Of a DNA stretch of 64,000 bases, positions 63-52,167 are shown one piece after another. Source of the DNA: an uncultured Kiloniellales bacterium. Its GTDB lineage: Bacteria; Actinomycetota; Acidimicrobiia; Spongiisociales; UBA5794. The translations under genes and the position numbers were made by a program. The notes under the pieces are model-generated. The model ran no database searches and was not told where the DNA came from. It saw only the letters and a program-made list of their open reading frames with translations. Numbering within the stretch: position 1 is the stretch's first letter; each line of letters begins with the position of its first letter. The DNA is taken from assembly GCA_964195155.1 (NCBI GenBank), contig CAXMOP010000115.1, forward strand, positions 4,986 through 68,985, given 5' to 3'.

Positions 63-80
63 GGAGCAGGAGTGTATGAG

Positions 81-216
81 TCGTCAGTCGTCAGTCGTCA
101 GTCGTCAGTCGTCAGAGGGCGGCGAAAAGGACAACCGCGTCTTCGGGCTGAAGACTGTGGACTCAGGACTGTGGACCTGAGGCCTATGGACTTGAAGACA
201 GGACTTGGACTCTCTT
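81..216. repeat. Heptamer tandem arrays: (TCGTCAG)x5 at 81-115, then about 9 GGACTNN-type units at 153-216
   Basis: Read directly from the sequence. The CAGTC and GACTG cores are complementary, so the two arrays can pair. They lie in the divergent region between the pmm-like start (62) and the GT2 start (238). Confidence 0.85.
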
Positions 217-6391: not shown

Positions 6392-6449
6392 GGAGCAAAC
6401 GAACTTAGGGCTCGGCGGGCTTCGGACCAAGGACTCAGGCGGTTGCCGG

Positions 6450-6512
6450 CCACTGGCCACTGGTCATTGGTCACTCGTCACTGGTCACTCGTCACTGATC
6501 TCACTCGTCACC
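6450..6512. repeat. Heptamer tandem array (CACTGGT/CACTCGT)x about 8
   Basis: Directly visible as ccactggccactggtcattggtcactcgtcactggtcactcgtcactga. It lies between two co-directional minus-strand genes. Confidence 0.85.
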
Positions 6513-6891
6513 GATCAAGCCCCGCTCGCCTTGCCGCGTCGCTCAGCGATCGCCGTCTCGGCACGCCGGCGACGAGGAGCTCGACCCGGAGGTCCCGATT
6601 GACTACCGCGGTGAGCGGGACGGATTCGACGCCGAGCTCCTCGAACACGGTCGGCTCGAGCTCCCAGGTGACCTCTCTCAGCGGCACACCGAGGGACTCA
6701 ACCATTGCCAGGGCTTGCTTGCAGTTCGCGCAGTCGGTGGAAGTGAAGACGACGACCCCGGGCTTGTCGGTGAGACCACCCAGGTCGATCGGCGGATGGG
6801 ATGGGCGGCGCCATCGTGCGATGAGCCTGGCGATGGCGATCACGATCAGGACTGCCAACAGCACGACGGCAATCCTGATCGCGATCGTCAC
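6508..6891 (-). CDS. Membrane-anchored thioredoxin/glutaredoxin-like protein (CANC motif)
   Basis: GTG at 6891 overlaps the upstream stop (GTGA). An N-terminal TM helix is followed by VVVFTSTDCANCKQA. Confidence 0.6.
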   Translation of the reverse strand: MTIAIRIAVVLLAVLIVIAIARLIARWRRPSHPPIDLGGLTDKPGVVVFTSTDCANCKQALAMVESLGVPLREVTWELEPTVFEELGVESVPLTAVVNRDLRVELLVAGVPRRRSLSDAARRAGLDR

Positions 6892-12101: not shown

Positions 12102-12796
12102 AGCGGATCGAGCTCATCCCCGTTGAGGGAGTTCCGGAGGTCCGGTCGGGCGACGAACTCGGCGGGATGATCGTCGCCGCCCTGGCGTCGTCGGGCGAGT
12201 CGCTCATCGACGGCGACGTGCTGGTCGTGACCCACAAGGTGATCTCGAAAGCCGAGGGACGGATCGCCGAGGTCGCTTCGGAGGAGGACTACCGAAAGCT
12301 GGTGGAGGACGAGGCCGAATCCATCATCCGCCGGCGGGGCGACCTCGTCATCACCAAGACGCGCCACGGCTTCATCTGCGCCAACGCCGGTGTCGATCGC
12401 TCGAATACCGCAGAGGGAACCGCGGTGCTGCTGCCGATCGAGCCGGATCGATCGGCCCATCGCCTTCGCGTCCAGATCCAGCACATGTTCGGGGTGTCGA
12501 TTGCCGTCGTAGTCACCGACACCTTTGGCCGCGCCTGGCGCCGCGGCCTGGTCGACGTGGCCATCGGGGTGTCTGGCCTGCCGGCGATCGTCGACCTGCG
12601 CGGCACCACCGACGCCTTCGGCCGAGTCCTCGACGTCACCGAGATCGCCCTCGTCGACGAGATCGCCGCTGCCGCCGACCTGGTGATGGGCAAGGCCAGC
12701 CAGGTCCCGGCGGCAATCCTGCGCGGGCTCACCCTCACCGGCGACGGCCGGGCCACCGACCTGGTCCGCCCCCCCGATGAAGACCTGTTCCGATGA
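12095..12796 (+). CDS. cofE: Coenzyme F420-0:L-glutamate ligase CofE (FbiB N-terminal domain type)
   Basis: An ATGGTGA overlap with the cofD stop. The VITHKVISKAEGR and ICANAGVD motifs are present. Confidence 0.85.
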   Translation: MVKRIELIPVEGVPEVRSGDELGGMIVAALASSGESLIDGDVLVVTHKVISKAEGRIAEVASEEDYRKLVEDEAESIIRRRGDLVITKTRHGFICANAGVDRSNTAEGTAVLLPIEPDRSAHRLRVQIQHMFGVSIAVVVTDTFGRAWRRGLVDVAIGVSGLPAIVDLRGTTDAFGRVLDVTEIALVDEIAAAADLVMGKASQVPAAILRGLTLTGDGRATDLVRPPDEDLFR

Positions 12797-12878
12797 GTCG
12801 CGAGTCACGAGTCGCGAGTCGCGAGCCCGAATCTTCGGTCGTGGTTTTGCTCGCGACTCGCGACTCGCGTCTGGCGTC
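12795..12878. repeat. Inverted heptamer arrays (GAGTCGC)x4-loop-(GCGACTC)x3 forming a long hairpin
   Basis: Directly visible as gagtcgcgagtcacgagtcgcgagtcgcgag ... ctcgcgactcgcgactcgcg, between cofE and fpg. Confidence 0.9.
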
Positions 12879-12883
12879 TTCTC

Positions 12884-13771
12884 ATGCCTGAGCTGCCTGA
12901 GATCGAGGCGTACCTGTATGCGCTGCGACCGCGGATCGTTGGCCGCCAACTGAAGGAGCTCCGGGTGGCCAGCTTCTCGCTGCTCCGCACCTACGACCCA
13001 CCGGTGTCGGCGGTGGAAGGCAAGGAGGTTGCCGGGGTGCACCGCATCGGGAAGCGCATCGCCATCGACCTCGAGGACGATCTCGCCATCGTGGTTCACC
13101 TGATGATCGCCGGACGGTTGAAGTGGGAGAAGGTGGGCAAGGCGATTCCAAAACGTTACGGGCTCGCCGCCCTCGACTTCGACGACGGAACGCTGCTGCT
13201 GACCGAGGCCGGCACAAAGCGACGGGCGACGATGCACATCGTGCGGGGAGACGAGTCGCTCGATGCGCTCGACCCCGGCGGCGCCGAGCTCGCCGACTTG
13301 GACGTGGCAGGTTTCAAGGAACGTCTACTCGTAGAGCGCCACACCCTCAAGCGAAGCCTCACCGATGCCCGATTCCTTTCTGGAATCGGTGGCGCGTTCG
13401 CCGATGAGATCCTGTGGCAGGCCAAGCTGTCGCCTACCCAGATCAACACCAACCTCGACGACGAGGAGGTCGAGCGTCTGTACCGCGCCAGCGTCGGCGT
13501 CATGGATCGGTGGACCGAGGTGCGCATCGACGAGACCGGCGACGGCTTCCCCGAGAAGGTCACCGCCTTTCATCCCGGCATGGGGGTGCACGGCAAGTTC
13601 GGCGAGGCTTGCCCGGAATGTGGCGCCCCGGTGCAGCGCATCGTGCATGGTCGCCGCGAGACCAACTACTGCCCGGGGTGTCAGACCGGAGGCAGGATCC
13701 TCGCCGACCGATCACTGTCGCGGCTCCTCAAGGACGACTGGCCGAAGACCCTGGACGAGCTAGAGGACTAG
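12884..13771 (+). CDS. Formamidopyrimidine-DNA glycosylase / endonuclease VIII family (Fpg/Nei)
   Basis: The N-terminus MPELPEIE carries the catalytic Pro2 and Glu3. The C-terminal zinc finger is CPECGAPVQR...CPGCQ. Confidence 0.85.
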   Translation: MPELPEIEAYLYALRPRIVGRQLKELRVASFSLLRTYDPPVSAVEGKEVAGVHRIGKRIAIDLEDDLAIVVHLMIAGRLKWEKVGKAIPKRYGLAALDFDDGTLLLTEAGTKRRATMHIVRGDESLDALDPGGAELADLDVAGFKERLLVERHTLKRSLTDARFLSGIGGAFADEILWQAKLSPTQINTNLDDEEVERLYRASVGVMDRWTEVRIDETGDGFPEKVTAFHPGMGVHGKFGEACPECGAPVQRIVHGRRETNYCPGCQTGGRILADRSLSRLLKDDWPKTLDELED

Positions 13772-18047: not shown

Positions 18048-19598
18048 GTGAGCACCGAAGACCGCATCAACCGCCTGCGTGAACTGCGCCAGGAGGCCAT
18101 GGAGCCAGCAAACCAGCGCGCCGTCGACCGCCAGCACGATTTGGGCAAGCTCACGGCTCGCGAGCGCGTCGAGTTGCTGCTCGACAAGGGCTCGTTCCAG
18201 GAAATGGACATGTTCGTGCGCCACCAGGCCAAGGGCTTCGGCATCGAGGACAAGCGGCCGCCCGGCGACGCAGTCATCACCGGATGGGGGACGATCGATG
18301 GACGCACTGCGTTCGTTTTTGCCGAGGACTTCACCGCGTTTGGCGGCAGCCTCGGAGAAGCGGTAGCCGACAAGATCTGCAAGGTGCTTGACCTGGCAAT
18401 GGAGAACGGGGTCCCGATCATCGGGATCAAGGACTCCGGGGGCGCCCGGATCCAGGAAGGAGTCGTCGCACTCGACGGCTACGGTCGAATCTTCGAGAGG
18501 AACGTGCGGGCGTCGGGCGTCATCCCGCAGATCTCGGTCATCATGGGCCCCTGCGCCGGTGGAGCCGTGTACTCGCCGGCGATCACCGATTTCGTGTACC
18601 AGGTCGATGAGACCTCCCACCTGTTCATCACCGGGCCCGAGGTGATCAAGGCCGTGACCGGTGAAGACGTGACCATGGAGGAGCTGGGCGGGGCCCACGC
18701 CCACGCCACCCGTTCAGGAGTGACTCACTTCGTCGTCGACGACGACCGCGCCGCCATGGAGGAAGTCCGCTATCTGTTGTCGTTCCTACCGCAGAACAAC
18801 ATGGAGGTGGCTCCCTTCTTCACACCACTCGACAGCCCGGACCGCACCGAAGAAGACCTGACCACCATCATCCCCGAGTCTCCGAATCAGCCGTACGACA
18901 TGGTCGACGTCGTCGCCGCGATCTTCGACGACGGCGAGTTCTATCAGGTCCACGAGCACTTCGCCATGAATCTCATCGTCGGGTTCGCCCGGCTCGACGG
19001 TTACACCGTCGGCGTGATCGGCAACCAGCCGATGTCCCTGGCCGGCAGCCTCGACATCGACGCCTCGGTCAAGGGAGCCCGCTTCGTGCGGTTCTGCGAC
19101 GCTTTCAACATCCCGCTCGTCACCCTCGTCGACGTCCCCGGGTTCATGCCGGGCGTCGATCAGGAGCATGAGGGGATCATCCGCCACGGTGCCAAGCTGC
19201 TGTATGCCTTCTCTGAGGCGACGGTGCCACGGGTGACCGTCATCACGCGCAAGGCGTACGGGGGCGCCTATCTGGTGATGAACTCACGGGCCCTCAGGGC
19301 CGATATGGCGTTTGCGTGGCCCACCGCAGAGATCGCGGTGATGGGCGCACCAGGGGCGGTCAACATCATCCACCGCCGCACGATCGCCGCCGCCGACGAC
19401 CCGGACGCCGAGCGAGAAGCCCTGATCACGGACTACGAAGAGAAATTCTCCAATCCGTACATCGCAGCGGAGCGGGGCCTGATCGACGACGTCATCGAGG
19501 CAAGGGAGACCCGGCCGCGGTTGATCCGTTCCCTGGCCATGCTCCGCAACAAGCGCGAGGCGATGCCGCCCAAGAAGCACGGGAACATCCCGTTGTAG
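18048..19598 (+). CDS. Acyl-CoA carboxylase carboxyltransferase (beta) subunit, PccB/AccD5-like
   Basis: 516 aa with two crotonase-like carboxyltransferase halves, and a strong full-length match to propionyl-CoA carboxylase beta. GTG start at 18048. Confidence 0.9.
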   Translation: MSTEDRINRLRELRQEAMEPANQRAVDRQHDLGKLTARERVELLLDKGSFQEMDMFVRHQAKGFGIEDKRPPGDAVITGWGTIDGRTAFVFAEDFTAFGGSLGEAVADKICKVLDLAMENGVPIIGIKDSGGARIQEGVVALDGYGRIFERNVRASGVIPQISVIMGPCAGGAVYSPAITDFVYQVDETSHLFITGPEVIKAVTGEDVTMEELGGAHAHATRSGVTHFVVDDDRAAMEEVRYLLSFLPQNNMEVAPFFTPLDSPDRTEEDLTTIIPESPNQPYDMVDVVAAIFDDGEFYQVHEHFAMNLIVGFARLDGYTVGVIGNQPMSLAGSLDIDASVKGARFVRFCDAFNIPLVTLVDVPGFMPGVDQEHEGIIRHGAKLLYAFSEATVPRVTVITRKAYGGAYLVMNSRALRADMAFAWPTAEIAVMGAPGAVNIIHRRTIAAADDPDAEREALITDYEEKFSNPYIAAERGLIDDVIEARETRPRLIRSLAMLRNKREAMPPKKHGNIPL

Positions 19599-19629
19599 GA
19601 GTCGCGAGTCGCCAGTCGCCAGTTGCGAG
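19599..19629. repeat. Heptamer array GAGTCGC GAGTCGC CAGTCGC CAGTTGC
   Basis: Directly visible between the carboxylase beta and alpha genes. Confidence 0.85.
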
Positions 19630-23125: not shown

Positions 23126-25720
23126 ATGCTTTTTGGCGATGGTACCCAGGGGGGCCATTTCTATTCCCCACCTCCACCGGTCTATTCGCCACCAGCAAGA
23201 ACGTTCATGACCATGGATCCCAATATCCACGAGGCCCATCGCAGGGACCGCCGCCGCAGGCGGCTCCCATCGTTACTGCTGCTCACGATCATTGTGATCG
23301 TCGGGGCGAGCTGGGTCGGGTTGTTCGGGTTCCTCGGCTCCACCTCCGCAATGGGCACCGTCGAGGAAGTGGAGGAGCGGTTTCTCTGCGACATCAGCGG
23401 CGTCGATCTTTCCTTCCCCGATGTTTCCCGCCTCTCCGCGGTCGAGACCAGCGATGGCGTCGAGCTGGGCAAGCTCTCAGAGCGGAACAGCCAGCCGATC
23501 CCGATCGACGAGATCCCCGAGCTCGTGGTCAATGCGTTGCTCTCCGCCGAAGACAAGAGCTTCTACGAGCACGAGGGGGTCGACTTCCTGGCGGTGTTCC
23601 GTGCCGCCACCAGCGGTGGCGAGAGCGGTGCTTCCACGATCACCCAACAGGTCGTGAAGCAGAACTTCCTCAGCTCGGATCGCACCATCGAGCGAAAGAT
23701 CTGTGAGGCGCAGTTGGCGACCGAGCTGGAACGCCTATATACGAAGGACCAGATCCTCGAGTTCTATGCCAACTCGGTCTTTTTCGGCGCCAACGCCTAC
23801 GGGATCACGGCGGCAGCCCAGGAGTACTTCGGGAAGCCGCTCGAGGACCTCGACGCTGCCGAGGCTGCCACGTTGGTCAGCCCGATCAGGAACCCAAGCT
23901 TCTACCACCCACGCCAGAACCCGAGCAACGCCATCGGTGTCCGCAATCGCACCATCGCGAGCATGGAGGAGAACGGGTTCATCACCGCCGAGGAAGCAAC
24001 CGCGGCCAAGAGCCAGTCACTTGGTGTGCTCCCCCACTCCGAACGCGAGGAACTCGCTCCACAGGTCATGATCGCGGTGCGTCGCGCATTGCTTGACGAC
24101 ACCACAAACCGATTTGGTCTCGGCACTACCTATACCGAGCGCAAGCAAGCGGTGTTCGGGTGCCCGGCTGCGGACACCACGTGCGCCGGCGGGGGCGGCC
24201 TGAATATCGAAGTCACCGTCAACTTCGATTGGCAAACCGAAGGAACCCGGATCTTGCGGGCCTGGTATCGGCACGATGCCGGCGGGCCAACCGGCGCCAT
24301 CGCGACCGTGGAGAATGCGACCGGCGCGATTCGCGTGCTGGCGTCTGGCGTCGAGTACGGCACCGACCTCGCCGCCGGGGAGCGGCCATACGACCTTGCT
24401 CTCGAAGGGCGACGCCACGCCGGGTCGGCATTCAAGCCCTACACGCTGGCGGCGGCGCTCGAAAGCGGTGATCTGAACGGGCGGCCGGTCACCTTGAACT
24501 CGTACTGGGACCGAGGCAGGCCGGCCGTGATCGATTGTGGCTTCCCGTGTTCCTCGCGCGGCAATTTTTGGGTGGTCGATGCGGGCCTGAACACCCCTCA
24601 TGAGTTGCGTACCCTCGAGTCCGCAACGGTGTCGTCGCTGAATCCTGTCTACGCCAGGTTGATTGCCGCCATCGGCGCCGAGCCGGTCGTCGACATGGCC
24701 TATCGGCTCGGCATCCGCACGTCGGAGGTGAAGCCGGTGTATGCGGTGACCCTGGGCGCAGCGTCGGTCAGTCCGCTGGAGATGGCATCTGCGTACTCGA
24801 CCTTCGCCAACCAGGGGAACTACCTGGAGCCTTACCTGATCGAACGGATCACCGACTCGTCGGGCAACGTGATCTACCAGCATCGTCCCCAGCCGGAGCG
24901 AGTGCTCTCGCCGCAAATCGCTGCGGCGGTGACGACGACGCTCGAAAAGGTCGTCGCCGGGGGCACCGGTACCCGGGCCAAGATAGACCGGCCGCAGGCG
25001 GGCAAGACCGGAACGGCAACCGACAACACCGACGTGTGGTTCGTCGGATTCATCCCGCAATACTCCACTGCGGTGTGGGTCGGCTATCCCGACGGCGCGG
25101 TTCCGATGAAGAACTTCACGATCTTTAACGACGTCGAAGGCCGCGAGCAGTCGATTCGCCAGGCCTTCGGGGGCACGGTCGCCGCTCCCGCCTGGCGCCA
25201 GTTCATGCTCTACCTCACCGACGGTCTCGAGGTTCTCGACTTTCCCGAGCCGCCGGAGGGCACCAGCCAGTACTACCGCGTGCCGGGGACGCGGGTACCC
25301 AATATCAACCTCGAGAACATGAACCTCGCCAGGATCGAGGATCTGATCTATGCCGCCCACCTGCGCGTCGCGCTCGTCGAGGTCCCATCGCTCGAAGAGG
25401 TGGACACGCTGCTCAGCATGACGCCGGGATCGGGCGCGTCGATGGGTCAGGGCGGGGCCGTGACCATCGAGATCTCGATCGGCATCCCTGAGGAGATCGT
25501 GAGCCCGAACCTGGTCGGTCTGCCGGTAATCGAAGTCGATCCCACCCTCAATGCGTTCCTCGCCGAGTTCGCCGTCCAGCTCAACTGGGTGCGGCAAGAT
25601 GTCGAGACACCCGATCCCGCCCAGTGGGGACGCGTCGTCGCCACCGACCCCCCGCCGGGGGCCCTGGTGAGGCCCGGCGACACGATCATCGTGTCGGTTG
25701 GAGTCCAGCCAAGTAGCTGA
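23126..25720 (+). CDS. Class A penicillin-binding protein (PBP1A: transglycosylase plus transpeptidase plus a C-terminal PASTA-like tail)
   Basis: ATG at 23126 follows GGAGGG. A proline-rich cytoplasmic tail and a TM helix precede the domains. The GT51 motifs [12 protein letters not shown] and RKICE, the SAFKP serine and the KTGT box are all present. Confidence 0.85.
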
Positions 25721-25744
25721 GTCGCGAGTCGCGAGTCGCGAGTC
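25719..25744. repeat. (GAGTCGC)x3.5 heptamer array immediately after the PBP1A stop
   Basis: Directly visible. Confidence 0.9.
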
Positions 25745-25809
25745 ATGAGAACCTCTCACGCATCTCGCGTCTCGCATCTGGTCGGACCCCCAGCTAGGCG
25801 AATTCGTTG

Positions 25810-25894
25810 CCTCCCCCTCAGGGGGAGGTGCCGAGCGCCAGCGAGGCGGAGGGGGTCAAAGCCTTGCCGCGACCACGGTTCGACCCCCTCGCCT
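25810..25894. other. Two very stable GC hairpins: CCTCCCCCT/AGGGGGAGG at 25810-25828, and a 12-bp stem GGCGGAGGGGGTC...GACCCCCTCGCC at 25845-25894
   Basis: Perfect complementarity read directly. They sit in a 396-nt intergenic region. Confidence 0.7.
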
Positions 25895-25970
25895 CCCGAC
25901 TGTCGGGGCTCCCCCCTTTTCGGCTACTCGCTTCGCGCGCTTCCAGTGACCAGGTTTGTCCGTCCGGACT

Positions 25971-26048
25971 CGGTCACCGGTCACCGGTCACCGGTCCCTG
26001 GTCACTGGTCATTGGGATCTGCTCGCGTCACGGGTCTCGGGTCTGGCG
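25971..26048. repeat. Heptamer array (GGTCACC)x3 then GGTCCCT GGTCACT GGTCATT ...
   Basis: Directly visible. Confidence 0.85.
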
Positions 26049-26116
26049 ATGCTATTCTTCGCGCTCTCAGCTCGGCCTACTTGACTATAAGGGCGCCTAG
26101 CTGTACCTATATACCT

Positions 26117-26620
26117 ATGTCAGACTCGGCGGCGTCCGAAGCATCCCTCGCCGACGGTGTACGTCCTCCCACCGCTTCGATCAGGGAATCCGCGCCACCC
26201 TCGGGCGTCGCCGAGCATGACCAGTTCCTACCGAGTGGCCGGCCCATGTCCGCCCCCGCGGCTCCCCGGCCCACCGCTTCGATCCGGCCGCATCTTCGGC
26301 CCGTGGCATGGCGCGGGACCGGCGTGCGGAGCGGATTCTCCACCGACGATCCCTATGTGCGCCGCTTCTGGACGGCGGCCATAGGTCCGGGAGCGGTCGC
26401 GGACCTGATGCGTCTCGCCGTTGCCGCAGAGCGCGGCCGCTCCCTCCCCCGCCCCGAAGCCATCGGTGTCCTCGTCCGGGAGGACCTGGCTCGGTGGGTG
26501 GAGGGACGGCTGTTCGTGCGCACGACGATCCCGCCGCTGTCTGCCGCCCAGGAACGCCGCCTCAGCCCGGGGCTGAAGCGAGAGCACCGCGCCTCCCCGC
26601 AGCCTGCCGCGTCGAGCTAG
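26117..26620 (+). CDS. Hypothetical protein with an Ala/Pro-rich N-terminus and a conserved-looking C-terminal half
   Basis: ATG at 26117, preceded by the AT-rich run gtacctatatacctATG. The coding potential is moderate and no family could be assigned. Confidence 0.4.
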   Translation: MSDSAASEASLADGVRPPTASIRESAPPSGVAEHDQFLPSGRPMSAPAAPRPTASIRPHLRPVAWRGTGVRSGFSTDDPYVRRFWTAAIGPGAVADLMRLAVAAERGRSLPRPEAIGVLVREDLARWVEGRLFVRTTIPPLSAAQERRLSPGLKREHRASPQPAASS

Positions 26621-26630
26621 CGTTGTCGCC

Positions 26631-27743
26631 ATGGACTACCGGCGGCTCATCGAGCAATACCGCTCGGAAGTATCCGAGTTCTCGCCGTCGGAGGCGAAGA
26701 CGGAAGACTTCGCCGTCGTGATCGACGTCCGGGAACCCGTACAGCGTCTCGAAGGATCGATCGCCGATTCGATCGCCATGCCGAGGTCCGTCCTGGAACG
26801 AGAGATCAATGGAACGGTGCCGGACCGCGACGCGTCGATCCTCCTGTACTGCGTCGTCGGTGAGAGCTCGATCCTGGCCGCCCACACACTGCAGGCGCTC
26901 GGCTACCGCAACGTGAGCTCGTTGGCCGGCGGCTTCCGTCGATGGAAGGCCGACGGAAACCCCATCGTCCTCGATGACGCACTCGCCGCCGATGAGCGCA
27001 TCCGATACGACCGCCAGATTCGGCTCGACGAGATCGGCACCTCAGGTCAGCAGCGATTGCTCGCTTCTCGGGCACTGTTGATCGGAGCCGGCGGGCTTGG
27101 CTCCCCCGCCGCGCTCTACCTGGCTGCCGCTGGAGTCGGCTCCATCGGGATTGTCGACTTCGACCGGGTCGACGTGACCAATCTTCACCGGCAGATCCTG
27201 CACGACACGCCATCGATTGGAAGGGCGAAGACCGATTCGGCGGCCGAGCGGCTCGAAGCCCTGAACCCCGACGTCAAGGTCGAGGTCCACGGCATCCAGG
27301 TGTCGGACGAGAACGCGGTCGGCCTCGTGTCGGGCTACGACGTGATCATCGATGCCTCGGACAACTTCCCCACCAGGCTCGCCCTCAACGACGCCTCGAT
27401 TGCCACGGGGGTTCCACTGGTGCACGGATCGGCGCTGCGTTTCGAAGGAACGGTGGCAGTCTTCGACCCACCCAACGGTCCGTGCTATCGATGCCTGTTC
27501 CCCATCCTCCCGCAGGACGCGGCAACCTGCTCGGACGTCGGCGTCCTCGGAGCGTTGACCGGCGTCATCGGCTCGACCCAGGCCGTCGAGGCGATCAAGC
27601 TATTGCTCGGTGTCCGGCCCCTCTCCGGCGAGTTCCTCACCTACAACGCCCTCGACTCCCACTGGGCGAGGTACCGCTTCGAGAAGGACCCGCAGTGCCC
27701 TGCCTGCGGCGCAGAGTCCAGAGTCGAGAGGCCAGAGTCCTGA
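26631..27743 (+). CDS. ThiF/MoeB-type E1-like adenylyltransferase with an N-terminal rhodanese domain (reverse of the MoeZ order)
   Basis: Residues 1-110 form a rhodanese domain with an LYCVVGESS active-site Cys loop. Residues 120-370 form the ThiF domain with the GAGGLGS nucleotide motif and the CYRC...CPAC zinc motifs. Confidence 0.8.
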   Translation: MDYRRLIEQYRSEVSEFSPSEAKTEDFAVVIDVREPVQRLEGSIADSIAMPRSVLEREINGTVPDRDASILLYCVVGESSILAAHTLQALGYRNVSSLAGGFRRWKADGNPIVLDDALAADERIRYDRQIRLDEIGTSGQQRLLASRALLIGAGGLGSPAALYLAAAGVGSIGIVDFDRVDVTNLHRQILHDTPSIGRAKTDSAAERLEALNPDVKVEVHGIQVSDENAVGLVSGYDVIIDASDNFPTRLALNDASIATGVPLVHGSALRFEGTVAVFDPPNGPCYRCLFPILPQDAATCSDVGVLGALTGVIGSTQAVEAIKLLLGVRPLSGEFLTYNALDSHWARYRFEKDPQCPACGAESRVERPES

Positions 27744-27806
27744 GCAAGAGGCCCGAGTCCGACTCTCGACTCATGACTCTCGACTTAAGGCTCTCGACTC
27801 ATGACT
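27714..27806. repeat. Inverted heptamer arrays (GAGTCNN)x about 6 and (GACTCNN)x about 6 forming a long imperfect hairpin between convergent genes
   Basis: Directly visible. Confidence 0.85.
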
Positions 27807-29239
27807 GCTGCTAGCTCCACAAGGGTTCTGACGCCGAAACCGGATCCACCCTTGACCATGTAGTGATCGGTCTTGTCCGCCCGCGCTGGCCCGGCGATGT
27901 CCAGGTGCACCCAGGGCCGGTCCCCGGCGAACTCGGCAAGAAACAGGGCTGCGTTGATGGTGCCGCCCCAGTTGTCGTCTGCGATGTTCTGCAGGTCGGC
28001 GATCGACGAGTCGAGCTTCTGGCGGTATTCATGTTCCAGGGGAAGCTGCCACCACTTCTCTCCGGCGAATCGGCCGGCGGCGAGCACCGACTCTATTGCG
28101 TCCTCGTCGTTGCCGAGCACCGCACCGATGAGCTGGCCGAGGGCAACCTTGGCGGCGCCGGTCAGCGTGGCGATGTCGACCACGAGGTCGACGTCGGCAT
28201 CCGCGGCGATGCCGAGACCATCTGCCAACACCAGCCGGCCCTCGGCATCGGTGTTCAGCACTTCGACGGTCTTGCCGCCGTATGCGGTGAACACGTCGCC
28301 CGGGCGTTGCGCGGCGCCGCCGGTCATGTTCTCGGTGAGAGGAGCCACACCGATCACCCGAATCGGCAGGCCGAGCGCGGCAATGGCCTGCATGGCGCCG
28401 AAGACGGTCGCGGCTCCCGCCATGTCGGTCTTCATCGCCTCCATGCCCTTGGCCGGCTTGATCGACAGTCCGCCCGAGTCAAAGACGATTCCCTTGCCGA
28501 CCAGAGCCAGCGATGTGGAGGCGTCGTCTGGCTCGTAACGGAGCAGCACCATGCGGGGAGGACTGGTGGCACCGGAAGCGACGGCGAGCAGCCCGCCGTA
28601 GCCGCGGGATCGTGCCTCTTGCTCGTCGACGATCTCGACTTCGACTCCGGCGATCCCTGCGGCGCGCTCGGCGAGTACCGCCGGTGGCTTGTCGCCCGCC
28701 GGCTCATTGACCAGATCCCGTGTGAAGTTGACGCCCGCGGCGATCTTGGATGCCCGTTCGATCGCAGCACCGGCGCCGTCTTCGGCCTCCAGGAGCACGA
28801 GCCGCTCGGTCCTACGCTCCTTCGGTTCTGATCGGTACTCGTCGAATGAATAGGATCCGAGCAGAAAGCCAAGGGCCACCGCCTCGGCGGCCCCTTCGAC
28901 GTCGACCAGATGCAATGTGGTGGCGACCTTTGCCAAGGGACGGGCGGCTCGGCCGAGGGTGCCGGCTGCCCTTCGGATCGCCTCGGCATCGACCTCGTCG
29001 CCGAGACCGAGAAACAGCACCTCGGTGAAGCCGGTCTCCCCCCCGGGGACCGCGACCTGCTGGCCGGTCTTGCCGCTGAACTCACGCGCTGCGAGGTACT
29101 CGTCGAGCCAGTCGCCGAGCCGCTCGGAGACTGCGGCTCCCCCAGGCCCGTAGGTAGAATCGGCGAATACCGGCACGGCGAGCAAGTCGCCGGCCGCTTC
29201 GGCGAGGGATCCTCCTGTTTCGATCTCAGTCATCGGCAT
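27785..29239 (-). CDS. pepA: Leucyl aminopeptidase (M17, PepA)
   Basis: NTDAEGRL and the M17 metal-ligand region VGKGIVFDSGG are present. Confidence 0.85.
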   Translation of the reverse strand: MPMTEIETGGSLAEAAGDLLAVPVFADSTYGPGGAAVSERLGDWLDEYLAAREFSGKTGQQVAVPGGETGFTEVLFLGLGDEVDAEAIRRAAGTLGRAARPLAKVATTLHLVDVEGAAEAVALGFLLGSYSFDEYRSEPKERRTERLVLLEAEDGAGAAIERASKIAAGVNFTRDLVNEPAGDKPPAVLAERAAGIAGVEVEIVDEQEARSRGYGGLLAVASGATSPPRMVLLRYEPDDASTSLALVGKGIVFDSGGLSIKPAKGMEAMKTDMAGAATVFGAMQAIAALGLPIRVIGVAPLTENMTGGAAQRPGDVFTAYGGKTVEVLNTDAEGRLVLADGLGIAADADVDLVVDIATLTGAAKVALGQLIGAVLGNDEDAIESVLAAGRFAGEKWWQLPLEHEYRQKLDSSIADLQNIADDNWGGTINAALFLAEFAGDRPWVHLDIAGPARADKTDHYMVKGGSGFGVRTLVELAAVMSREP

Positions 29240-32427: not shown

Positions 32428-32542
32428 GTCAACCTCCTCCTCGGCGACGCGCAAGGGTAGGCGGCGGGCGCGGTCGGGCCGCCCGGGCATCGTGCGCGTA
32501 TGGTTTGTGGAACATGAGCCGCGAGCAATCCGAGGTGTTGTG

Positions 32543-33208
32543 ATGACGGCAAAGGGTGGCAACGGTCGGCTTCCCCTCTCCTACCTGACCCTGCGACGGA
32601 CTTTGGGAATCCTGGGCATGGCGCTTCCGGTGATTTTGGTGATCGGCGGCCTCATCTTCACCTCCAACAGCGAGATCGAGAACACCATCAGCGACTATTA
32701 CGACACCATCATGGTGGGCGTCTTTGTCGGCGTGCTGTTTGCCATTGCCACGTTCATGTTCTCCTACCTCGGCTACGAGATGCCGAACAGGGGACGATTC
32801 GAGGCTACCGACAACATCGCCGGCAACCTGGCGGCCCTCTTCGCCGTCCTGGTGGCGCTGTTCCCGACCACCCATTCCGTGCAGTGGGTGCGAGGCGTGC
32901 ACCTGGCATCGGCGTTGCTGTTCTTCATGACCCTGGCGTACTTCTCGATCCACTTGTTCACCAAGACCACGCCGGGCGAGACCGCGCAGGGGAGAAAGGC
33001 CGATCGGAACCGGATCTACCGAGTCTGCGGCTGGGCCATCATCCTGTTCATCGCCCTGATCGCCGTCTACTTCCTGTTCTTCCAGGACACGGGCATCGCC
33101 GATCTCAAGCCCGTGCTCGTGCTCGAGTCACTTGCGCTGTGGGCATTTGGCATCTCCTGGCTGGTCAAGGGCGATACGTTGCTCCAGGACTCACCGCCCG
33201 CCCGGTGA
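32543..33208 (+). CDS. Hypothetical membrane protein (5-6 TM helices); first gene of the low-GC island
   Basis: ATG at 32543 with a GAGGTG Shine-Dalgarno sequence. GC content is clearly lower than in the flanking DNA. Confidence 0.55.
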
Positions 33209-33393
33209 GCGCTTCCGGTCGAGCCTCGAGCCCGAGGCGATCGCCGAACGGCGGATGGCGAGTTGAGGCCCGAGGGCAGCGCGGTATTGCCGGTTCTCGG
33301 ACGCCGCGACGTGGGTTGGTGAGCCGGCGCGTGCGTCGTTATGTGCGGTCTGCGCAGACGGTGGAAACCGACGATCTTGCCAGGGGTCAGGGA

Positions 33394-33415
33394 GCGCATA
33401 TTGCCGGATATGCGC
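33394..33415. promoter_or_regulatory. Island palindromic motif copy a: GCGCATATTGCCGGATATGCGC
   Basis: An 8-bp perfect inverted repeat around a GCCGG core. It lies upstream of the MBL hydrolase gene. A related copy is at 33454-33473. Confidence 0.6.
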
Positions 33416-33540
33416 TAGCTGATCTTGACGAACCGCTACGGGGAGCGCGAACAGAATGCCGGTTATGTGCGGGTGTCTGGGGGCCTTCTCCGGGCCCCGT
33501 CAGAACGAACTAGGGTGCGTCGACCCGAAGGAGGCCTTCT

Positions 33541-34677
33541 TTGTCGAACTTTGTCCTAGCGCATCTGGGTGGTACTACAGCGCTTACTACTGAGCCGGTC
33601 GTCGGGTCATCAGATATTGACCCGAGCGTGGCATTTCTGCCCGGGACCGAGGAGCTCGCCGAAGGTGAGATCCGAGTGTCAATCTTGGGTTCCGGGTTGC
33701 CGTGGGTGACCAAGTCGCAGGCATCCGGATCGGTTCTCATGGAGGTGGGCAATCCCGAAAAGGATGTGCTCGTCTTCGATATGGGAACAGGATCGCTGGC
33801 GAACTTCAGCGGTCTTCAAGTTCCTGTCACAAGCCTGAAGAACGTGTTCTTGAGCCATCTACATGCAGACCACATCTCCGACTACGTCACATTCATGGGC
33901 AGCTACGTCAAGGCTGGACGTCTAGACCCTGTCGAGGTGTGGGGTGGAGCGTCCGACGATCCCACATTGGGCCTTGCGACTTTCGTGGACCACATTCAGC
34001 GAGCCCTCGCGTGGGACCAGGCCTCAATCGAGGGATATGTACCTACTACCGGAGGACATGCCACCGCTCACGAAGTTCCATACGACAGGACTGAGGTGAT
34101 CTACGAGCGCAATGGCGTAACCATCACTTCGTTCCCAGTCATCCACGTCCTCAACGGTGCGGTGGGTTTCCGCGTCGATTACGGCGGGCAGTCCGTCGTG
34201 TTCTCTGGCGACACCCTCCCAACGATGACGCTTGTTGAGGCCTCTCAGAATTGTGATCTCCTGATCCACGAGGCAGCCCTTCCCGCCGAGCTGTTTGCCG
34301 AGTTGTACAGCTTCCCGATCGAGCAGGCGCGGATGGTCATCAATGAAGGCCACACCCCCGCCAACGCTGCTGGAATGGTGTTCGACATGGTGACGCCGCG
34401 AATGGCAGCCATGTGGCACACGGCCGTTGTAGACAAGTACGTCGATCCTTTCTTTGAGTCTCTCCGCACGACGTACTCCGGGCCGGCAACGCTGTGCCAG
34501 GACCTAACCGTGTTCAACGTCACGGCCGACGCCGTCACCGCCCGCCAAGCGACCATCGATTGGACCCAACAGGCGGTCGTAGGCGAATCCGATACCGCCC
34601 GGTCCTACGCAGAGCGGCGTCCCAGCCCGACATGGTTCGCCGACGCATATATCGACTGGCAGTCAAAACTCGGCTAA
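33541..34677 (+). CDS. MBL-fold metallo-hydrolase
   Basis: The HLHADHISD motif (HxHxDH) is present. TTG start at 33541, 7 nt after AAGGAGG. Confidence 0.75.
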   Translation: MSNFVLAHLGGTTALTTEPVVGSSDIDPSVAFLPGTEELAEGEIRVSILGSGLPWVTKSQASGSVLMEVGNPEKDVLVFDMGTGSLANFSGLQVPVTSLKNVFLSHLHADHISDYVTFMGSYVKAGRLDPVEVWGGASDDPTLGLATFVDHIQRALAWDQASIEGYVPTTGGHATAHEVPYDRTEVIYERNGVTITSFPVIHVLNGAVGFRVDYGGQSVVFSGDTLPTMTLVEASQNCDLLIHEAALPAELFAELYSFPIEQARMVINEGHTPANAAGMVFDMVTPRMAAMWHTAVVDKYVDPFFESLRTTYSGPATLCQDLTVFNVTADAVTARQATIDWTQQAVVGESDTARSYAERRPSPTWFADAYIDWQSKLG

Positions 34678-34680
34678 TCA

Positions 34681-34752
34681 GCCGCACATAACGGCACATA
34701 GTGGGCGGTCGCCTCCAGCTAGCGCATATCGGCACATATGCGCATATGTGTC
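34681..34752. promoter_or_regulatory. Island palindromic motif copies c1 and c2 (CCGCACATAACGGCACATAGTGGGCGG and GCGCATATCGGCACATATGCGCATATGTG)
   Basis: Directly visible in the convergent spacer after the MBL gene. Confidence 0.6.
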
Positions 34753-34855
34753 GATTGGGCGGGGGATTGGGTGCGTGTCTATGAAGCGCGAAGCGGCGCT
34801 GTGGACGTTTGCCGAGTCCGACGATTGAGTCGGGTCTTCTGTGGGTGAGTGGCGG

Positions 34856-35170
34856 TCAGCCCACCTCGACGTATTCCGAAATTGTCTTCATGAACTCGTC
34901 GGGGTCATCTGGGGTGACCGTGGCCCGTAGACGGCCGCCAGCATCTATCGCAATCCCCGTGGTCTTGTGTCGGCGTGCAGTGTCCCAGTTATACCAGTTC
35001 GACCATCCGCCCGGACCGAGTCCTATGACCCTCCACCGCCCGCCGAATCCCATCTCAAACACCTCGACTGATCGAATCTCGCCGTACGGAACCCGCTTCT
35101 CGCCCAATAGCCCGTAGCGAGCGATCGTGATACCCGTGTCATCGGCTCGCACCGTGTTGTCCTCATACAT
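34856..35170 (-). CDS. Bacterial PH-domain (bPH_2-like) small protein
   Basis: 104 aa. ATG at 35170. Confidence 0.5.
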   Translation of the reverse strand: MYEDNTVRADDTGITIARYGLLGEKRVPYGEIRSVEVFEMGFGGRWRVIGLGPGGWSNWYNWDTARRHKTTGIAIDAGGRLRATVTPDDPDEFMKTISEYVEVG

Positions 35171-35305
35171 CAGCCGCAGAGTATTGACACACTCGTCGTA
35201 TCAACACCGCCGCTGTCGCCGGTCGAATGAGCCACATCTCAATCGGGCGCGGCGGACTCACGAGGCCCAGACGCCCTCCGTCAGACAGTTCGGATTGAGA
35301 AGGCC

Positions 35306-35375
35306 CCCCCATAACCGGCAATATGGGCGGTTTCGCCCGGCGGGTCGGGTAGCGCATATGTGCCGATATGGGCGG
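35306..35375. promoter_or_regulatory. Island palindromic motif copies d1 (CCCCCATAACCGGCAATATGGGCGG) and d2 (GCGCATATGTGCCGATATGGGCGG)
   Basis: Directly visible. d2 ends at the ridA stop codon. Confidence 0.6.
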
Positions 35376-35834
35376 CTATTGGATCTCGACGATCGCCTCG
35401 ATCTCTACCGGTATGTTCATTGGAAGCGATCCAAGTCCGACCGCTGAACGTGCATGCCGTCCAGCCTCGCCGAATACGTCCGCCAGTAGATCAGAGCACC
35501 CGTTGATGACAGCCGGGTGATCAGTGAAATCGGTCGTGCAATTCACCATCCCCAGCACCTTGACTACCCTTACGACCTCGTCAAGCGAACCGAGATTCTT
35601 TCGAAGCGTCGCAAGCAAGCCAAGGCATGTGACTCGTGCCGCCTCGCTAGCTTCATCGGTATCGAGGTCCTCTCCAACCTTGCCGGTCATCCACGACCCG
35701 TCGGCGCGCATCGGGCCATGACCGGACGTGTAGGCGAGGTTCCCCGTTCGCACAAACGTGACATAGGACGCAATCGGATCGGGAGGTGAGGGCAACACCA
35801 AACCGAGTTCCTTGAGTCGAGCCTCCGCCGACAT
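35376..35834 (-). CDS. RidA/YjgF-family reactive-intermediate deaminase
   Basis: 152 aa with typical RidA fold motifs. ATG at 35834. Confidence 0.8.
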   Translation of the reverse strand: MSAEARLKELGLVLPSPPDPIASYVTFVRTGNLAYTSGHGPMRADGSWMTGKVGEDLDTDEASEAARVTCLGLLATLRKNLGSLDEVVRVVKVLGMVNCTTDFTDHPAVINGCSDLLADVFGEAGRHARSAVGLGSLPMNIPVEIEAIVEIQ

Positions 35835-35920
35835 CAGACGCTCCTGCCTCTACGAATCCCCCGAGGGTACAGGCCCACGTCTCCCGTCAACATTCTCGGC
35901 CGCACCAAGCCACTCAGAGA

Positions 35921-35944
35921 GCGCATATGTGCCGATATGGGCGG
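35921..35944. promoter_or_regulatory. Island palindromic motif copy e: GCGCATATGTGCCGATATGGGCGG
   Basis: Identical to d2, and located upstream of ridA. Confidence 0.6.
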
Positions 35945-35954
35945 GTGTTTGGTG

Positions 35955-37124
35955 TCAGCCGCAGGTGGCCTCGGAGCTGCTACTGACGGTATCGATCCAG
36001 TGGACGGATTGTCCGGTGGCGATGTCGCCTGTGGAGATCGTCCCTGATGCGGTGTATGTCGAGGGGTCGACGTTGAAGGTGTGGCGGTAGTCCGTTTCGT
36101 TGCCTGTTGTAGTGATGATCCCGGAGAACGTGTCGGTGGGGGCGCGGGATGGGATTTGGCGGTCATCGAGTCGGATGCTGGCGTGTAGGGGGCCGCCCCA
36201 GTCTCCCCACGTCAGGATCACTTGACACTCGCCCGAGCTTGGATCCCTGGACAGTTGGAGTGTTAGTTCAGCTTCGAGGGACGGCTTGTCGTTCAAACTG
36301 GCCTGTACGTCGATGAAGTTGCCTGCCAGCGGTACCAGTCGCGGGTTCCCGTAGAGGAAATCGACGTCGGCAACACCTGGGGTATTGGAGAACCGGAGGA
36401 ACATGGTGCGAGCGAATGGTCTGAAGATGCCCACGGTGTCAGGACCAGGCAGGTCGTCCTTCTGTGCCCAGTCACCGGCGATGATCCTGTCACCAGGATC
36501 TCCGTAGTAGAAGGTGCTATCGGCGATCCCCTGGGTATTCGAGTTCCGGAGGAACACCTGTCCGGTTGATTCGCGGTGGAGACCGACGGTGTCGATGTCG
36601 TCGTCGTCGAAGTCGCCTACGAACGGCTTGTCGAGAGGATTCCCGTAGTAGAACGAGTAGCTGGCCGCGCCCAGACCCTGTTCCCCACTGCCGAGACTGT
36701 CGAATATGAAGACTTGACCCTGCGACGGCCGGTACAGCGACACCGTATCGCACCCGTCCCCGTCGAAATCTCCTGTGATCGGAACGTCACCACGGCTGCC
36801 GAGGTAGAACCTGACATCGCCCTCTCCGATCGCGATGTGATTCCGCAGGTACACGTATCCATCCGTCGGTCGGAACATGCCTGGCGTATCCCAGCCATCG
36901 CAGTCCCAATCACCGACGATCGGGATATCTCCGGGTACGCCGAAGAAGAATCTATAGCTCGAAATCGTCCCGGATTGCTCGTGCTGCTGACGCAGGTACC
37001 ACAGGCCCGATGTGGTATCAACCACACCGACGGTGTCCTCGGGCGTCTCGGCCAAAACCGGAGCCGGTAAGGCGAGCCAACCGAGCACGACAATCAACAC
37101 AAGAGCCGTCACTGTCACCCTCAC
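35955..37124 (-). CDS. Secreted FG-GAP / beta-propeller repeat protein
   Basis: The signal peptide is VRVTVTALVLIVVLGWLALPAPVLA. At least five repeats of F(Y)YG.PGD.P..GD[WF]D.DG.DT.G.FRP follow. The start is GTG at 37124, or TTG at 37160. Confidence 0.7.
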   Translation of the reverse strand: MRVTVTALVLIVVLGWLALPAPVLAETPEDTVGVVDTTSGLWYLRQQHEQSGTISSYRFFFGVPGDIPIVGDWDCDGWDTPGMFRPTDGYVYLRNHIAIGEGDVRFYLGSRGDVPITGDFDGDGCDTVSLYRPSQGQVFIFDSLGSGEQGLGAASYSFYYGNPLDKPFVGDFDDDDIDTVGLHRESTGQVFLRNSNTQGIADSTFYYGDPGDRIIAGDWAQKDDLPGPDTVGIFRPFARTMFLRFSNTPGVADVDFLYGNPRLVPLAGNFIDVQASLNDKPSLEAELTLQLSRDPSSGECQVILTWGDWGGPLHASIRLDDRQIPSRAPTDTFSGIITTTGNETDYRHTFNVDPSTYTASGTISTGDIATGQSVHWIDTVSSSSEATCG

Positions 37125-37388
37125 CGACACCCCCGGACCCTCCACAATTTCGATCCTCAACGATCACGGATCATACGACTCAGACTATGAGAGGAAACGG
37201 ACCATGGTTCCCCATGACGTCCGGCTCAGCTAGCTCCTAGACGCCGAAGGAAGAGCGATCGCCGAATGGAATGGTGCTGCGGACGACCAGACGCTCGACT
37301 CTCTGCTCGAACAGTCCCTCGGGTGATCAACCCGGCCGAACGCCACCAAACCAATGACCTTCGGCGGCACGTCAAACCTCCGACCACA

Positions 37389-37414
37389 CCCGCCCATAAC
37401 CGGCAATATGCGCC
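37389..37414. promoter_or_regulatory. Island palindromic motif copy f: CCGCCCATAACCGGCAATATGCGCC (reverse complement of copy a type)
   Basis: Directly visible in the divergent spacer between the FG-GAP gene and the HNH gene. Confidence 0.6.
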
Positions 37415-37585
37415 CCCTACGTCCCGGTCTCCAGAGGCAGGACCGGGTACAGCACGAACACCGATCACCCGGTCTGAGCGACATCGCCGACATCCACGAG
37501 TGCTCTGGAACGGCACTTCGGAGTGCGGTCAGTTTCCTTGCATTTCTTCTGGAATCTGTCACCCGCACCGTGTAGGATCGAACAT

Positions 37586-38821: not shown

Positions 38822-38838
38822 TCGATCGCGCCGGCGCG

Positions 38839-47286: not shown

Positions 47287-47335
47287 GTCCAGGGTCCGAA
47301 CTCCCGACTCTCGACTCTCATTAGGCTCTCGCTCC
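47287..47335. repeat. Heptamer array GACTCTC GACTCTC ... preceded by AGTCCAG GGTCCGA
   Basis: Directly visible between tlpA-like and the LLM oxidoreductase gene. Confidence 0.8.
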
Positions 47336-52137: not shown

Positions 52138-52167
52138 GGACTCGCGACTCGCGACTCGCGACTCAGT
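52138..52167. repeat. (GACTCGC)x4 heptamer array in a divergent promoter region
   Basis: Directly visible. Confidence 0.9.

Follow-up and report, generated by a model that had tools for sequence, protein, structure and literature searches.

The 64,000-nucleotide (nt) stretch of contig CAXMOP010000115.1 analysed here (the window), from an uncultured member of the Acidimicrobiia, carries arrays of tandem heptanucleotides, with GAGTCGC and its complement GCGACTC as the main unit, at nine loci. The arrays are probably heptanucleotide microsatellites of the long simple sequence repeat (SSR) class, driven by strand slippage. They lie only in non-coding DNA or at the very 3' ends of genes, and slippage changes their length by 7 or 14 nt at a time. 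Their sites persist in related species while the units turn over, and their polarity is fixed, independent of gene orientation.

Tandem Repeats Finder (TRF) detected period-7 arrays at all nine loci named in a preliminary description of the window, and direct reading found the units there to be as described. The period-7 intervals are 79-115, 153-192, 6451-6516, 12795-12825, 12850-12869, 19599-19629, 25719-25744, 25759-25779, 25971-26044, 27712-27806, 47300-47319, 52139-52164 and 63419-63512. Our own period scan of the window at a score of at least 12 returned nine arrays of period 7 and seven of period 14, and none of periods 4, 5, 6, 8, 10, 11, 12 or 13. At the loosest threshold, 13 arrays were found, compared with a mean of 1.8 and a maximum of 6 in 50 Markov shuffles. 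The pattern AGTCNNNAGTCNNNAGTC (AGTC followed by any three bases, three times, with at most one mismatch) has 30 matches against 0.37 expected, a count reached in none of 100 shuffles. The density amounts to ~14 period-7 arrays per 100 kb, and the arrays, ~600 nt in total, make up roughly one tenth of the non-coding DNA of the window. These arrays recur in independent ENA, JGI, NCBI and Logan assemblies, indicating that they are not an assembly artefact. Head-to-tail 7-nt units in tracts longer than chance place the arrays among the long SSRs, a class of repeats with units of 5-11 nt. They are dispersed, with nine loci in the window (64 kb) and a further three in 16 kb of flanking sequence, mostly in non-coding DNA. 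Units in the window consist of an AGTC or GGTC core and three variable bases (AGTCGCG, AGTCGTC, AGTCCAG, AGTCGAG, AGTCATG, GGTCACC). The individual arrays are given below, where z is the RNA folding score relative to shuffled sequences.

79-115, plus strand: left arm, (AGTCGTC)x5.3, 100% matches in TRF, in the divergent gap between a phosphomannomutase-like gene (minus strand) and a glycosyltransferase gene (plus strand).
153-216, minus strand: degenerate right arm (GACTGTG/GACTCAG and the like; AGTC-type on the minus strand), pairing weakly with 79-115; z = -0.3.
6448-6516, minus strand: (GGTCACT/CGTCACT) units with a 14-nt super-period, directly past the stop of a 127-amino-acid (aa) gene on the minus strand.
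12795-12825, plus strand: 5' arm, (GAGTCGC)x4.4, the first unit overlapping the TGA stop of an F420-ligase gene.
12826-12849, unstranded: loop of the hairpin, which as a whole has a minimum free energy of -59.3 kcal/mol and z = -6.35.
12850-12879, minus strand: 3' arm (three GCGACTC units, then GCGTCTG), ending 4 nt ahead of the fpg start codon.
19599-19629, plus strand: single array, (GAGTCGC/CAGTCGC)x4.4, beginning 1 nt past the TAG of a carboxyltransferase gene; no excess structure.
25719-25744, plus strand: 5' arm, (GAGTCGC)x3.7, overlapping the TGA of a penicillin-binding protein (PBP) gene; site kept in the relatives L134, L220 and L223.
25757-25779, minus strand: 3' arm (CGCATCT/CGCGTCT; GAGACGC-type on the minus strand); z = -2.6.
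25971-26044, plus strand: (CGGTCAC)x5.9, of GGTNACC type, then (GTCACGG/GTCTCGG) units, within a 397-nt gap upstream of a conserved 167-aa gene.
27712-27760, plus strand: 5' arm, (CAGAGTC...)x7, the first units encoding the C-terminal tail of ThiF; z = -3.4.
27760-27806, minus strand: 3' arm, (GACTCTC/GACTCAT)x6, abutting the stop of an M17 peptidase gene on the minus strand.
47287-47319, both strands: short pair, AGTCCAG GGTCCGA (plus) then ACTCCCG ACTCTCG ACTCTC (minus), in the gap between a redoxin and a luciferase-like gene.
52139-52164, minus strand: single array, (GACTCGC)x3.7, 15 nt upstream of the start of a HAD hydrolase gene.
63419-63449, plus strand: 5' arm, (GAGTCGC)x4.4, overlapping the TGA of a sigma-70 gene.
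63473-63512, minus strand: 3' arm, (CTCTCGACTCAAGA)x2.9, overlapping the 3' end of nucS (minus strand); z = -1.9.

The gene map was transferred to the window from the called genes of public assemblies of the same organism. Non-coding DNA makes up 8-9% of the window, and all ten arrays with a score of at least 9 lie within it or at gene edges, which bears out the intergenic enrichment that had been proposed as a check. The claim that no array lies inside a gene is nearly correct but fails in the last codons of two genes. The array at 27712 encodes the last ~9 residues of ThiF (...CPACGAESRVERPES*), and the array at 63473-63512 overlaps the 3' end of nucS, the last codons of which are array-derived. 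A peptidase tail is likewise encoded by an array in one relative. The statement that nearly every gap longer than 40 nt carries an array was too broad, as 7-periodicity is present in 9 of the 31 gaps of at least 40 nt. Left arms start at, or no more than 1 nt from, a stop codon, and the TGA of three genes belongs to TGAGTCGC. Right arms end 4-20 nt ahead of start codons or abut the stops of minus-strand genes. The single arrays at 19599 and 52139 have their 5' ends beside the nearest gene.

Metagenome contigs, including a 120-kb contig and the metagenome-assembled genome (MAG) GCA_964194755.1, in which contig CAXMNS010000009.1 carries part of the window, are 99.7-99.9% identical to the window. 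The transketolase of the window has 79-81% identity to proteins labelled 'Acidimicrobiia bacterium', and the gene content (F420 genes, DUF5719, a PASTA-domain PBP, DUF222 and nucS) is consistent with Actinomycetota. Comparison of 21 loci of 99.7-99.9% identity, covering 55.6 kb of the window, showed a mismatch rate of 0.11% and six sites with insertions or deletions (indels) longer than 1 nt. Four of the six are inside arrays, which constitute ~1% of the sequence. The array at 6468 differs by +14 nt, equal to two units, and the array at 25719 by +7 nt. The array at 52139 is 7 nt shorter in three loci and 7 nt longer in one relative to the window. A 60-nt deletion in L002 at 12803-12855, lying between two TCGCGA microhomologies, eliminates the hairpin and leaves GAGTCGC joined to GACTCGC. 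The loci L223 and L224 also differ by one unit. Copy number thus varies between strains, another of the proposed checks, and the array indels are whole units concentrated in ~1% of the sequence, which is the signature of strand slippage.

Length alleles of this kind also occur at contingency loci, where phase variation switches neighbouring genes, as with the heptamers upstream of the Haemophilus hmw adhesins. Such a role could draw on the -7, 0 and +7 alleles in the divergent promoter gap at 52139 and on the +7 and +14 alleles at 25719 and 6468 among co-occurring strains. However, the neighbours are housekeeping genes (F420 ligase, fpg, carboxylases, PBP, ThiF, a sigma factor and nucS) and most arrays lie downstream of genes, which makes phase variation barely credible. 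The same counter-argument has been made for the heptamer arrays of Xanthomonas and Nostoc (PMC4692102).

Two sites of length variation lie elsewhere in the window. A 15-nt tandem repeat of 5.3 copies at 57704-57785, within an ABC-transporter ATPase gene, contains an indel site at 57732; strains differ there by 15-60 nt, and the called products have 242, 263, 273 and 283 aa. At 59691, 22 nt present in all other strains are missing from the window, upstream of an M23 peptidase gene or in the region of its signal peptide. The peptidase gene probably starts earlier than called, since an LRRFLSVALILATT... reading is visible, and the window allele may therefore be frameshifted.

Confinement of the arrays to the window, which had been named as a refutation, was not found. 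Arrays continue on the same 120-kb contig beyond the window (L214 11690-11768, L216 17193 and 18292) and in related Acidimicrobiia. Related species retain synteny and have arrays at the same junctions with altered units. After the PBP stop codon, the window and L220 have (GAGTCGC)n with (CGCGTCT)n. At the same place L134, the only close relative from one metagenome scan, has (AAGTCGC)n with the complementary (GCGACTT)n, and L223 has AAGTCGC-type units. The ThiF/M17 junction carries four unit types in four species. In the L216 array at 18292-18440, outside the window on the same contig, (GAGTCGC)x4.4 is followed by a tandem-duplicated unit of ~55 nt starting GAGCCCGACTGAATTGC.

The arrays are mostly laid out as facing pairs, 5'-(GAGTCNN)n ... 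(NNGACTC)n-3', with a left arm that is AGTC-type on the plus strand and a right arm that is AGTC-type on the minus strand. The window contains six such pairs (79/153, 12795/12850, 25719/25757, 27712/27760, 47287/47300 and 63419/63473). Every plus-strand match of AGTCNNNAGTCNNNAGTC lies to the left of the minus-strand matches of its locus, and the reverse order never occurs. This polarity is obeyed by about 12 of 12 pairs in Acidimicrobiia loci, six of them within the window. The unit GAGTCGC consists of the palindrome TCGCGA and one further base, G in left arms and C in right arms. Because the two orientations differ in that one base, a single array is already self-complementary at six of seven positions. 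The hairpin architecture, the fixed polarity and the palindrome plus one base are additions to the preliminary description. Across 107 arrays from other genomes, positions 3 and 4 of the unit (G3, T4) are the least variable and positions 1, 6 and 7 the most variable. The near-palindromic property is limited to GAGTCGC and GGTSACC. Quasi-palindromic units as a general law were rejected, since 9 of 72 other units reach self-complementarity at six of seven positions, compared with 12% of random heptamers.

Paired arrays could instead be selected RNA hairpins that act as 3'-end stabilisers, insulators, RNase III sites or factor-assisted terminators, tandem repeats being merely a convenient means of making and renewing such extended stems. 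RNA folding of 12790-12885 gave -59.3 kcal/mol (z = -6.35 relative to shuffles), and the z values are -3.4 for 27706-27812, -2.6 for 25714-25785 and -1.9 for 63414-63516. The first three of these folds are very stable, and the arrays start 0-1 nt past stop codons. The conservation of sites with matched changes in the two arms (AAGTCGC with GCGACTT in L134) is also what structural constraint predicts. However, the four segments above (z from -1.9 to -6.35) are the only ones among the nine loci that fold better than shuffles; the single arrays and the 79-216 pair (folded as 74-220) do not. None of the hairpins is followed by a T-run after 12879, 25779, 27806 or 63512 that could encode a U-tract, which is 7-9 nt long in canonical intrinsic terminators and which the RNA polymerase of Actinobacteria, as studied in mycobacteria, requires (PMC3993855). 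The arrays are no rarer in divergent promoter gaps than after genes, nor in antisense than in sense orientation, and in two species each unit of the conserved PBP hairpin retains a U.U mismatch. In Xanthomonas, no regulatory role was found for the corresponding arrays (Rehm et al., PMC4692102). Since the hairpins lack U-tracts, half of the loci do not fold and arrays are as frequent in promoter gaps as downstream of genes, selected hairpins rank second to slippage, with a fairly low probability, and the other alternatives rank lower. No Rfam family reached its gathering score in the window, and none an E-value of 0.1 or less in 25700-26130; the segment 59300-59800 gave one match at chance level. 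No tRNA or tmRNA was found in the window.

The occurrence of the unit in other organisms was surveyed by scanning one genome per species for (GAGTCGC)3, and the cross-phylum counts given here refer to the matches listed. The pattern is present in more than 112 loci, a lower bound for GAGTCGC alone. Gemmatimonadales dominate, and the matches also include Acidobacteriota, Planctomycetota, Bacteroidota, Patescibacteria, Chloroflexota, Nitrospira, Myxococcota, Victivallales, several Proteobacteria and Actinomycetota, at least five of the last being Acidimicrobiia. Cultured carriers among the matches listed are Uliginosibacterium flavum KACC 17644, Streptomyces sp. 9-7 and a Kitasatospora. The GAGTCGC-bearing loci contain 109 other period-7 arrays in 777 kb, compared with at most 22 for any other period, a density similar to that of the window. 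In contrast, unselected metagenome loci contain five period-7 arrays in 516 kb (~1 per 100 kb), no more than of period 8. For arrays independent of the selected one, at distances above 400 nt, AGTC/GACT occurs in 26% (4.7% expected) and GAGTC/GACTC in 18% (1.6% expected). In the Gemmatimonadales genome MFD05747.bin.2.224 (L075, L092 and L116), nested palindromes are built from several heptamer families and are far more elaborate than in the window; in (ATTGGCT)n (GAGTCGC)n (CAGCCGC)n ... (CCATAGC)n, for example, the outer and the inner arms are each complementary.

The polarity found in the window is kept in 117 GAGTCGC arrays from many phyla. Two or more GCGACTC units near an array of at least three GAGTCGC units lie downstream of it in nine cases and upstream in none, and GACTC pentamers number 111 downstream and 13 upstream of such arrays. 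Inverted pairs of unrelated heptamers also have the G-rich arm 5' (GAGGGGA/TCTCCCT, ATTGGGG/CAATCCC, GGCTATG/AGCCAAT). The gene closest to an array lies on its 5' side in 50 cases and on its 3' side in 21 (p = 8e-4), regardless of gene orientation. Arrays lie in sense and antisense contexts equally often (24 vs 25), and the flanking genes are arranged as -+ in 29 cases, ++ in 25, -- in 23 and +- in 11.

The excess of the core bears on the possibility that a trans-acting protein recognises the arrays as multimeric sites, reading single-stranded RNA or DNA with a register of 7 nt. Candidate binders would be cold-shock or S1-domain proteins or a HutP-like ring protein, serving a post-transcriptional or nucleoid-organising network. 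Besides the 26% of arrays with AGTC/GACT, a conserved AGTC core between variable flanks and the presence of the same unit in many phyla agree with such a binder. Start codons without a Shine-Dalgarno sequence follow some arrays at a distance of 4-15 nt, and a similar hypothesis has been put forward for the TAACTGA repeats of Beggiatoaceae (PMC4679880). However, without an orientation preference a single-stranded RNA binding site would be present in only half of the transcripts. In the same genomes, 74% of the arrays have no such core; moreover, a given site carries different units in different species, and no candidate protein was found. A trans-acting binder is accordingly judged improbable.

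The palindromic unit with its fixed polarity, as in REPINs, raises the further possibility that the arrays were seeded by a mobile element or an enzyme, either a REPIN- or MITE-like element with a hairpin-specific transposase, or a GANTC/GAGTC nicking or restriction-modification enzyme together with a polymerase. GAGTC is the site of PleI, MlyI and N.BstNBI, and GANTC that of HinfI and CcrM. Both GAGTC and GACTC are GANTC sites, and the identical unit is shared by Gemmatimonadales, Acidobacteriota, Planctomycetota, Bacteroidota, Patescibacteria, Proteobacteria and Actinomycetota. In addition, GAGCCCGA comes after three arrays, at 12826, at 19627 and at the L216 18292 array outside the window. 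However, the arms have neither a fixed length nor fixed ends, no target duplication is present, and the short L002 allele still has one unit per arm. No transposase or methyltransferase is among the called genes of ~81 kb. Outside the arrays, GAGTC/GACTC is neither avoided nor enriched (observed/expected ratio 1.02); TCGCGA has a ratio of 0.68. The restriction-modification or nickase lead was rejected for want of a signal, as this ratio is matched by the absence of a methyltransferase or nuclease from the called genes. Carriage by phages was also rejected: (GAGTCGC)3 has one match in 2.9 million viral contigs, compared with 9, 6 and 1 for three permuted controls. Moreover, orthologous sites keep their arrays while the units mutate in place. 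Seeding by an element or enzyme is thus very unlikely.

Heptamer arrays of bacteria have been known since 1990, when the STRR repeats were described. The STRR units of heterocystous cyanobacteria, CCCCAGT, TTGGTCA and CAACAGT, read AGTCCCC, GGTCATT and AGTCAAC when rotated or taken from the other strand and so contain AGTC or GGTC. They share with the window arrays the dispersed, intergenic tandem arrangement, but phylum, GC content and units differ. The window arrays have none of the cyanobacterial units that define STRR, and the common core is a weak resemblance. STRR, taken in the preliminary description to be the closest known analogue, is a fair analogue, but the arrays of Xanthomonas and Nostoc are closer. 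Xanthomonas has ~185 (GGGAATC)n arrays per genome and Nostoc PCC 7120 similar (GGGGAYT)n arrays, 89-93% of them intergenic and typically of about four copies (Rehm et al. 2015, PMC4692102). Each genome has 70-75 cases in which two neighbouring sites on opposite strands converge, and such pairs are able to form stem-loops. In both organisms, the arrays are almost always closer to the 5' neighbouring open reading frame (ORF; 28 nt vs 160 nt), have no coding-strand preference and lie beside genes of all functional classes. Sister species have arrays of different length and sequence in the same gene gaps, and no function was found (PMC4692102). The window arrays share the 7-nt units in typically about four copies, the intergenic location, the convergent pairs, the proximity to the 5' ORF, the lack of strand preference, neighbours from all functional classes and the conservation of sites with turnover of units. 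They differ in that the main unit is a near-palindrome (TCGCGA plus one base), in the uncultured Acidimicrobiia host and in the spread of the same unit across phyla. GAGTCGC, AGTCGTC, GGTCACC and GACTCTC contain no GGG and thus lack the G-tracts of at least three, so that what the arrays have in common cannot be the formation of G-quadruplexes or i-motifs. A 'GnGAnT' consensus common to these units and the Xanthomonas unit GGGANTN was rejected as a weak resemblance only, because the conserved positions differ (G3 and T4 here, the G-tract there).

According to the summary in PMC4679880 of a study by Mrazek, Guo and Shah (2007), long SSRs with units of 5-11 nt are sporadic in prokaryotes, heptanucleotides are the most abundant among them, and three Actinobacteria are among the ten genomes richest in them. 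The same summary gives polymerase slippage with a 7-nt footprint as the proposed cause. Tracts above chance, heptamer units and the inclusion of Actinobacteria are shared with the window, although the long SSR is a statistical class and not a mechanism. The supposition that nothing equivalent had been described in high-GC Actinobacteria is thus contradicted, as far as that summary goes. TAACTGA repeats of marine Beggiatoaceae, Cyanobacteria and Bacteroidetes are abundant intergenic heptamers with a similarly patchy spread across phyla (MacGregor 2015, PMC4679880). Their arrays of 2-6 copies lie close to start codons without a canonical ribosome-binding site, are AT-rich, almost all direct (indirect sets 1 of 170) and oriented with the downstream gene (PMC4679880), whereas the window arrays are inverted pairs as a rule and have no orientation preference. 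With REP, BIME and REPIN elements the arrays share the intergenic position, palindromy, fixed polarity and frequent location at gene 3' ends. REP and REPIN elements, however, have a fixed palindrome of ~20-40 nt, a conserved 5' tetranucleotide and an associated RAYT, whereas the arrays here have variable arms without shared ends or a 5' GTAG, and no transposase or RAYT is among the called genes of ~81 kb. CRISPR repeats of 23-47 nt alternate with unique spacers, in contrast to the contiguous 7-nt units here, and the arrays are indeed non-coding sequences that are neither REP nor CRISPR, as first described. A literature search for the GAGTCGC unit returned only primers and similar sequences. 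Because the full property set is already described in Xanthomonas and Nostoc, and Actinobacteria are included in the 2007 survey as summarised, the phenomenon is not new, and the arrays are a further instance of a described but unexplained heptamer phenomenon that also occurs in high-GC bacteria.

Strand slippage in such long SSRs, the favoured explanation, would both create and resize the arrays. Their exclusion from genes would follow from the 7-nt step, which shifts the reading frame. MutS itself copes only with loops of a few nucleotides, and nucS is a marker of the non-canonical mismatch repair of Actinobacteria; in the window, nucS (EndoMS) lies at the right edge (63495-64000, minus strand) and runs beyond it. 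The arrays may persist because loops of their size escape correction where NucS replaces MutS/MutL. Actinobacteria lack MutS/MutL and use NucS (PMC5290159), and indels are not repaired by NucS (PMC7015689). The constant polarity may have its origin in the asymmetric self-folding of the two strands. In the folding model, (GAGTCGC)8 and (GCGACTC)8 self-fold with -30.0 and -21.6 kcal/mol as DNA and with -41.8 and -35.4 kcal/mol as RNA, and the difference in DNA is attributable to G.G as against C.C mismatches. GGTGACC and GGTCACC follow the same order. Among 22 paired units, the 5'-arm strand as observed folds better in 12, worse in 2 and equally well in 8. The G/T-rich strand, which self-folds better, would be the preferred strand for fold-back (template-switch) copying. 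A nascent strand, once folded back and used as its own template, would produce the complementary arm downstream, with the G-type arm 5' and the C-type arm 3'. Facing arrays would place long hairpins without U-tracts into transcripts that cross the gap, and 7-nt length changes would alter the spacing of untranslated regions and promoters. We take such effects on expression to be secondary consequences and not the reason for the arrays.

Several observations weigh against slippage as the full account. Slippage alone gives no reason for a period of 7 over 5, 6 or 8, and it leaves the 5- to 11-fold excess of the AGTC/GAGTC core among independent arrays unexplained. Heptamer-rich genomes include phyla with MutS/MutL, so that lack of repair is not the whole story. 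Nor does slippage account for arrays that stay at the same junctions in species whose proteins are 78-89% identical, a persistence that could reflect selection. The sister species L221/L222, found in the same samples and with a transketolase of 84% identity, is almost devoid of arrays, indicating that some lineage-specific factor matters. The fold-back model is a thermodynamic calculation that is confounded with G/T-richness, and 8 of the 22 paired units do not fold at all in it. Growth of arrays toward the gene was considered and rejected, as degenerate units number 0.70 upstream and 0.94 downstream of the perfect core; a polarity of decay along the arrays was thus not found. The loss of 60 nt in L002 may have been produced by the assembler. 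It is conceivable, though unlikely, that a single cross-phylum process, specific in sequence and polarity, underlies all heptamer arrays (STRR, Xanthomonas GGGAATC and GAGTCGC/GCGACTC). That process would be either a trans-acting factor in AGTC register or a general strand-asymmetric fold-back, and its presence would decide which genomes are rich in heptamers.

Heptamers were recognised in 2007 as the commonest long microsatellites in prokaryotes, yet their origin and function are not understood. New here are the unit incapable of forming a G-quadruplex, its near-palindromic form (TCGCGA+N), the cross-phylum polarity rule, a testable fold-back explanation and cultured carriers. Since the full set of heptamer properties occurs with such a unit, the leading structural idea no longer serves as a general explanation. 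The polarity rule, with the G-rich arm 5' in at least ten phyla, can be linked to the asymmetry of strand self-folding and so offers a testable mechanism, and the presence of GAGTCGC in cultured strains makes experiments possible. Array lengths also vary between strains, and assemblies may collapse at these sites.

For annotation, the arrays matter because they create spurious ORFs and array-encoded C-terminal tails. The 291-aa ORF placed by public callers at 25745-26620 is an example, as its first 370 nt consist of arrays and non-coding DNA (GC at codon positions 1/2/3 of 0.68/0.66/0.72). Comparison with the relative L134 places the true gene start at 26118, not 25745, downstream of a promoter-like TTGACT...TATATA site. 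The segment of ~190 nt between the two arrays there (25780-25970) is missing in L134 and holds the palindrome GCCTCCCCCTCAGGGGGAGG. A 58-nt stretch of it has an 81% match to a Kiloniellales MAG contig (L028), apparently from the same sequencing project as judged by the accession prefix. The segment may be a small dispersed palindromic element.

A region of ~6.3 kb at 32491-38838 has no heptamer arrays despite several long gaps. It contains hyp221, a metallo-beta-lactamase-fold gene, a YjgF-family gene, DUF222 and others, with a GC content of 0.60-0.62 compared with 0.65, and these genes are missing between the transketolase and M24 peptidase genes in three related species. The region looks like an insertion. 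Within it, a motif of ~34 nt (GCGCATATGTGCCGATATGGGCGG...) occurs three times (34740-34773, 35352-35385 and 35921-35954), each copy upstream of one of three consecutive minus-strand genes, and could be a shared operator or promoter. Elsewhere, at 51849-51957, imperfect tandem repeats of 24 and 27 nt lie inside a 221-aa gene with a weak match to the 'New_glue' Pfam family, which indicates a repetitive protein product.

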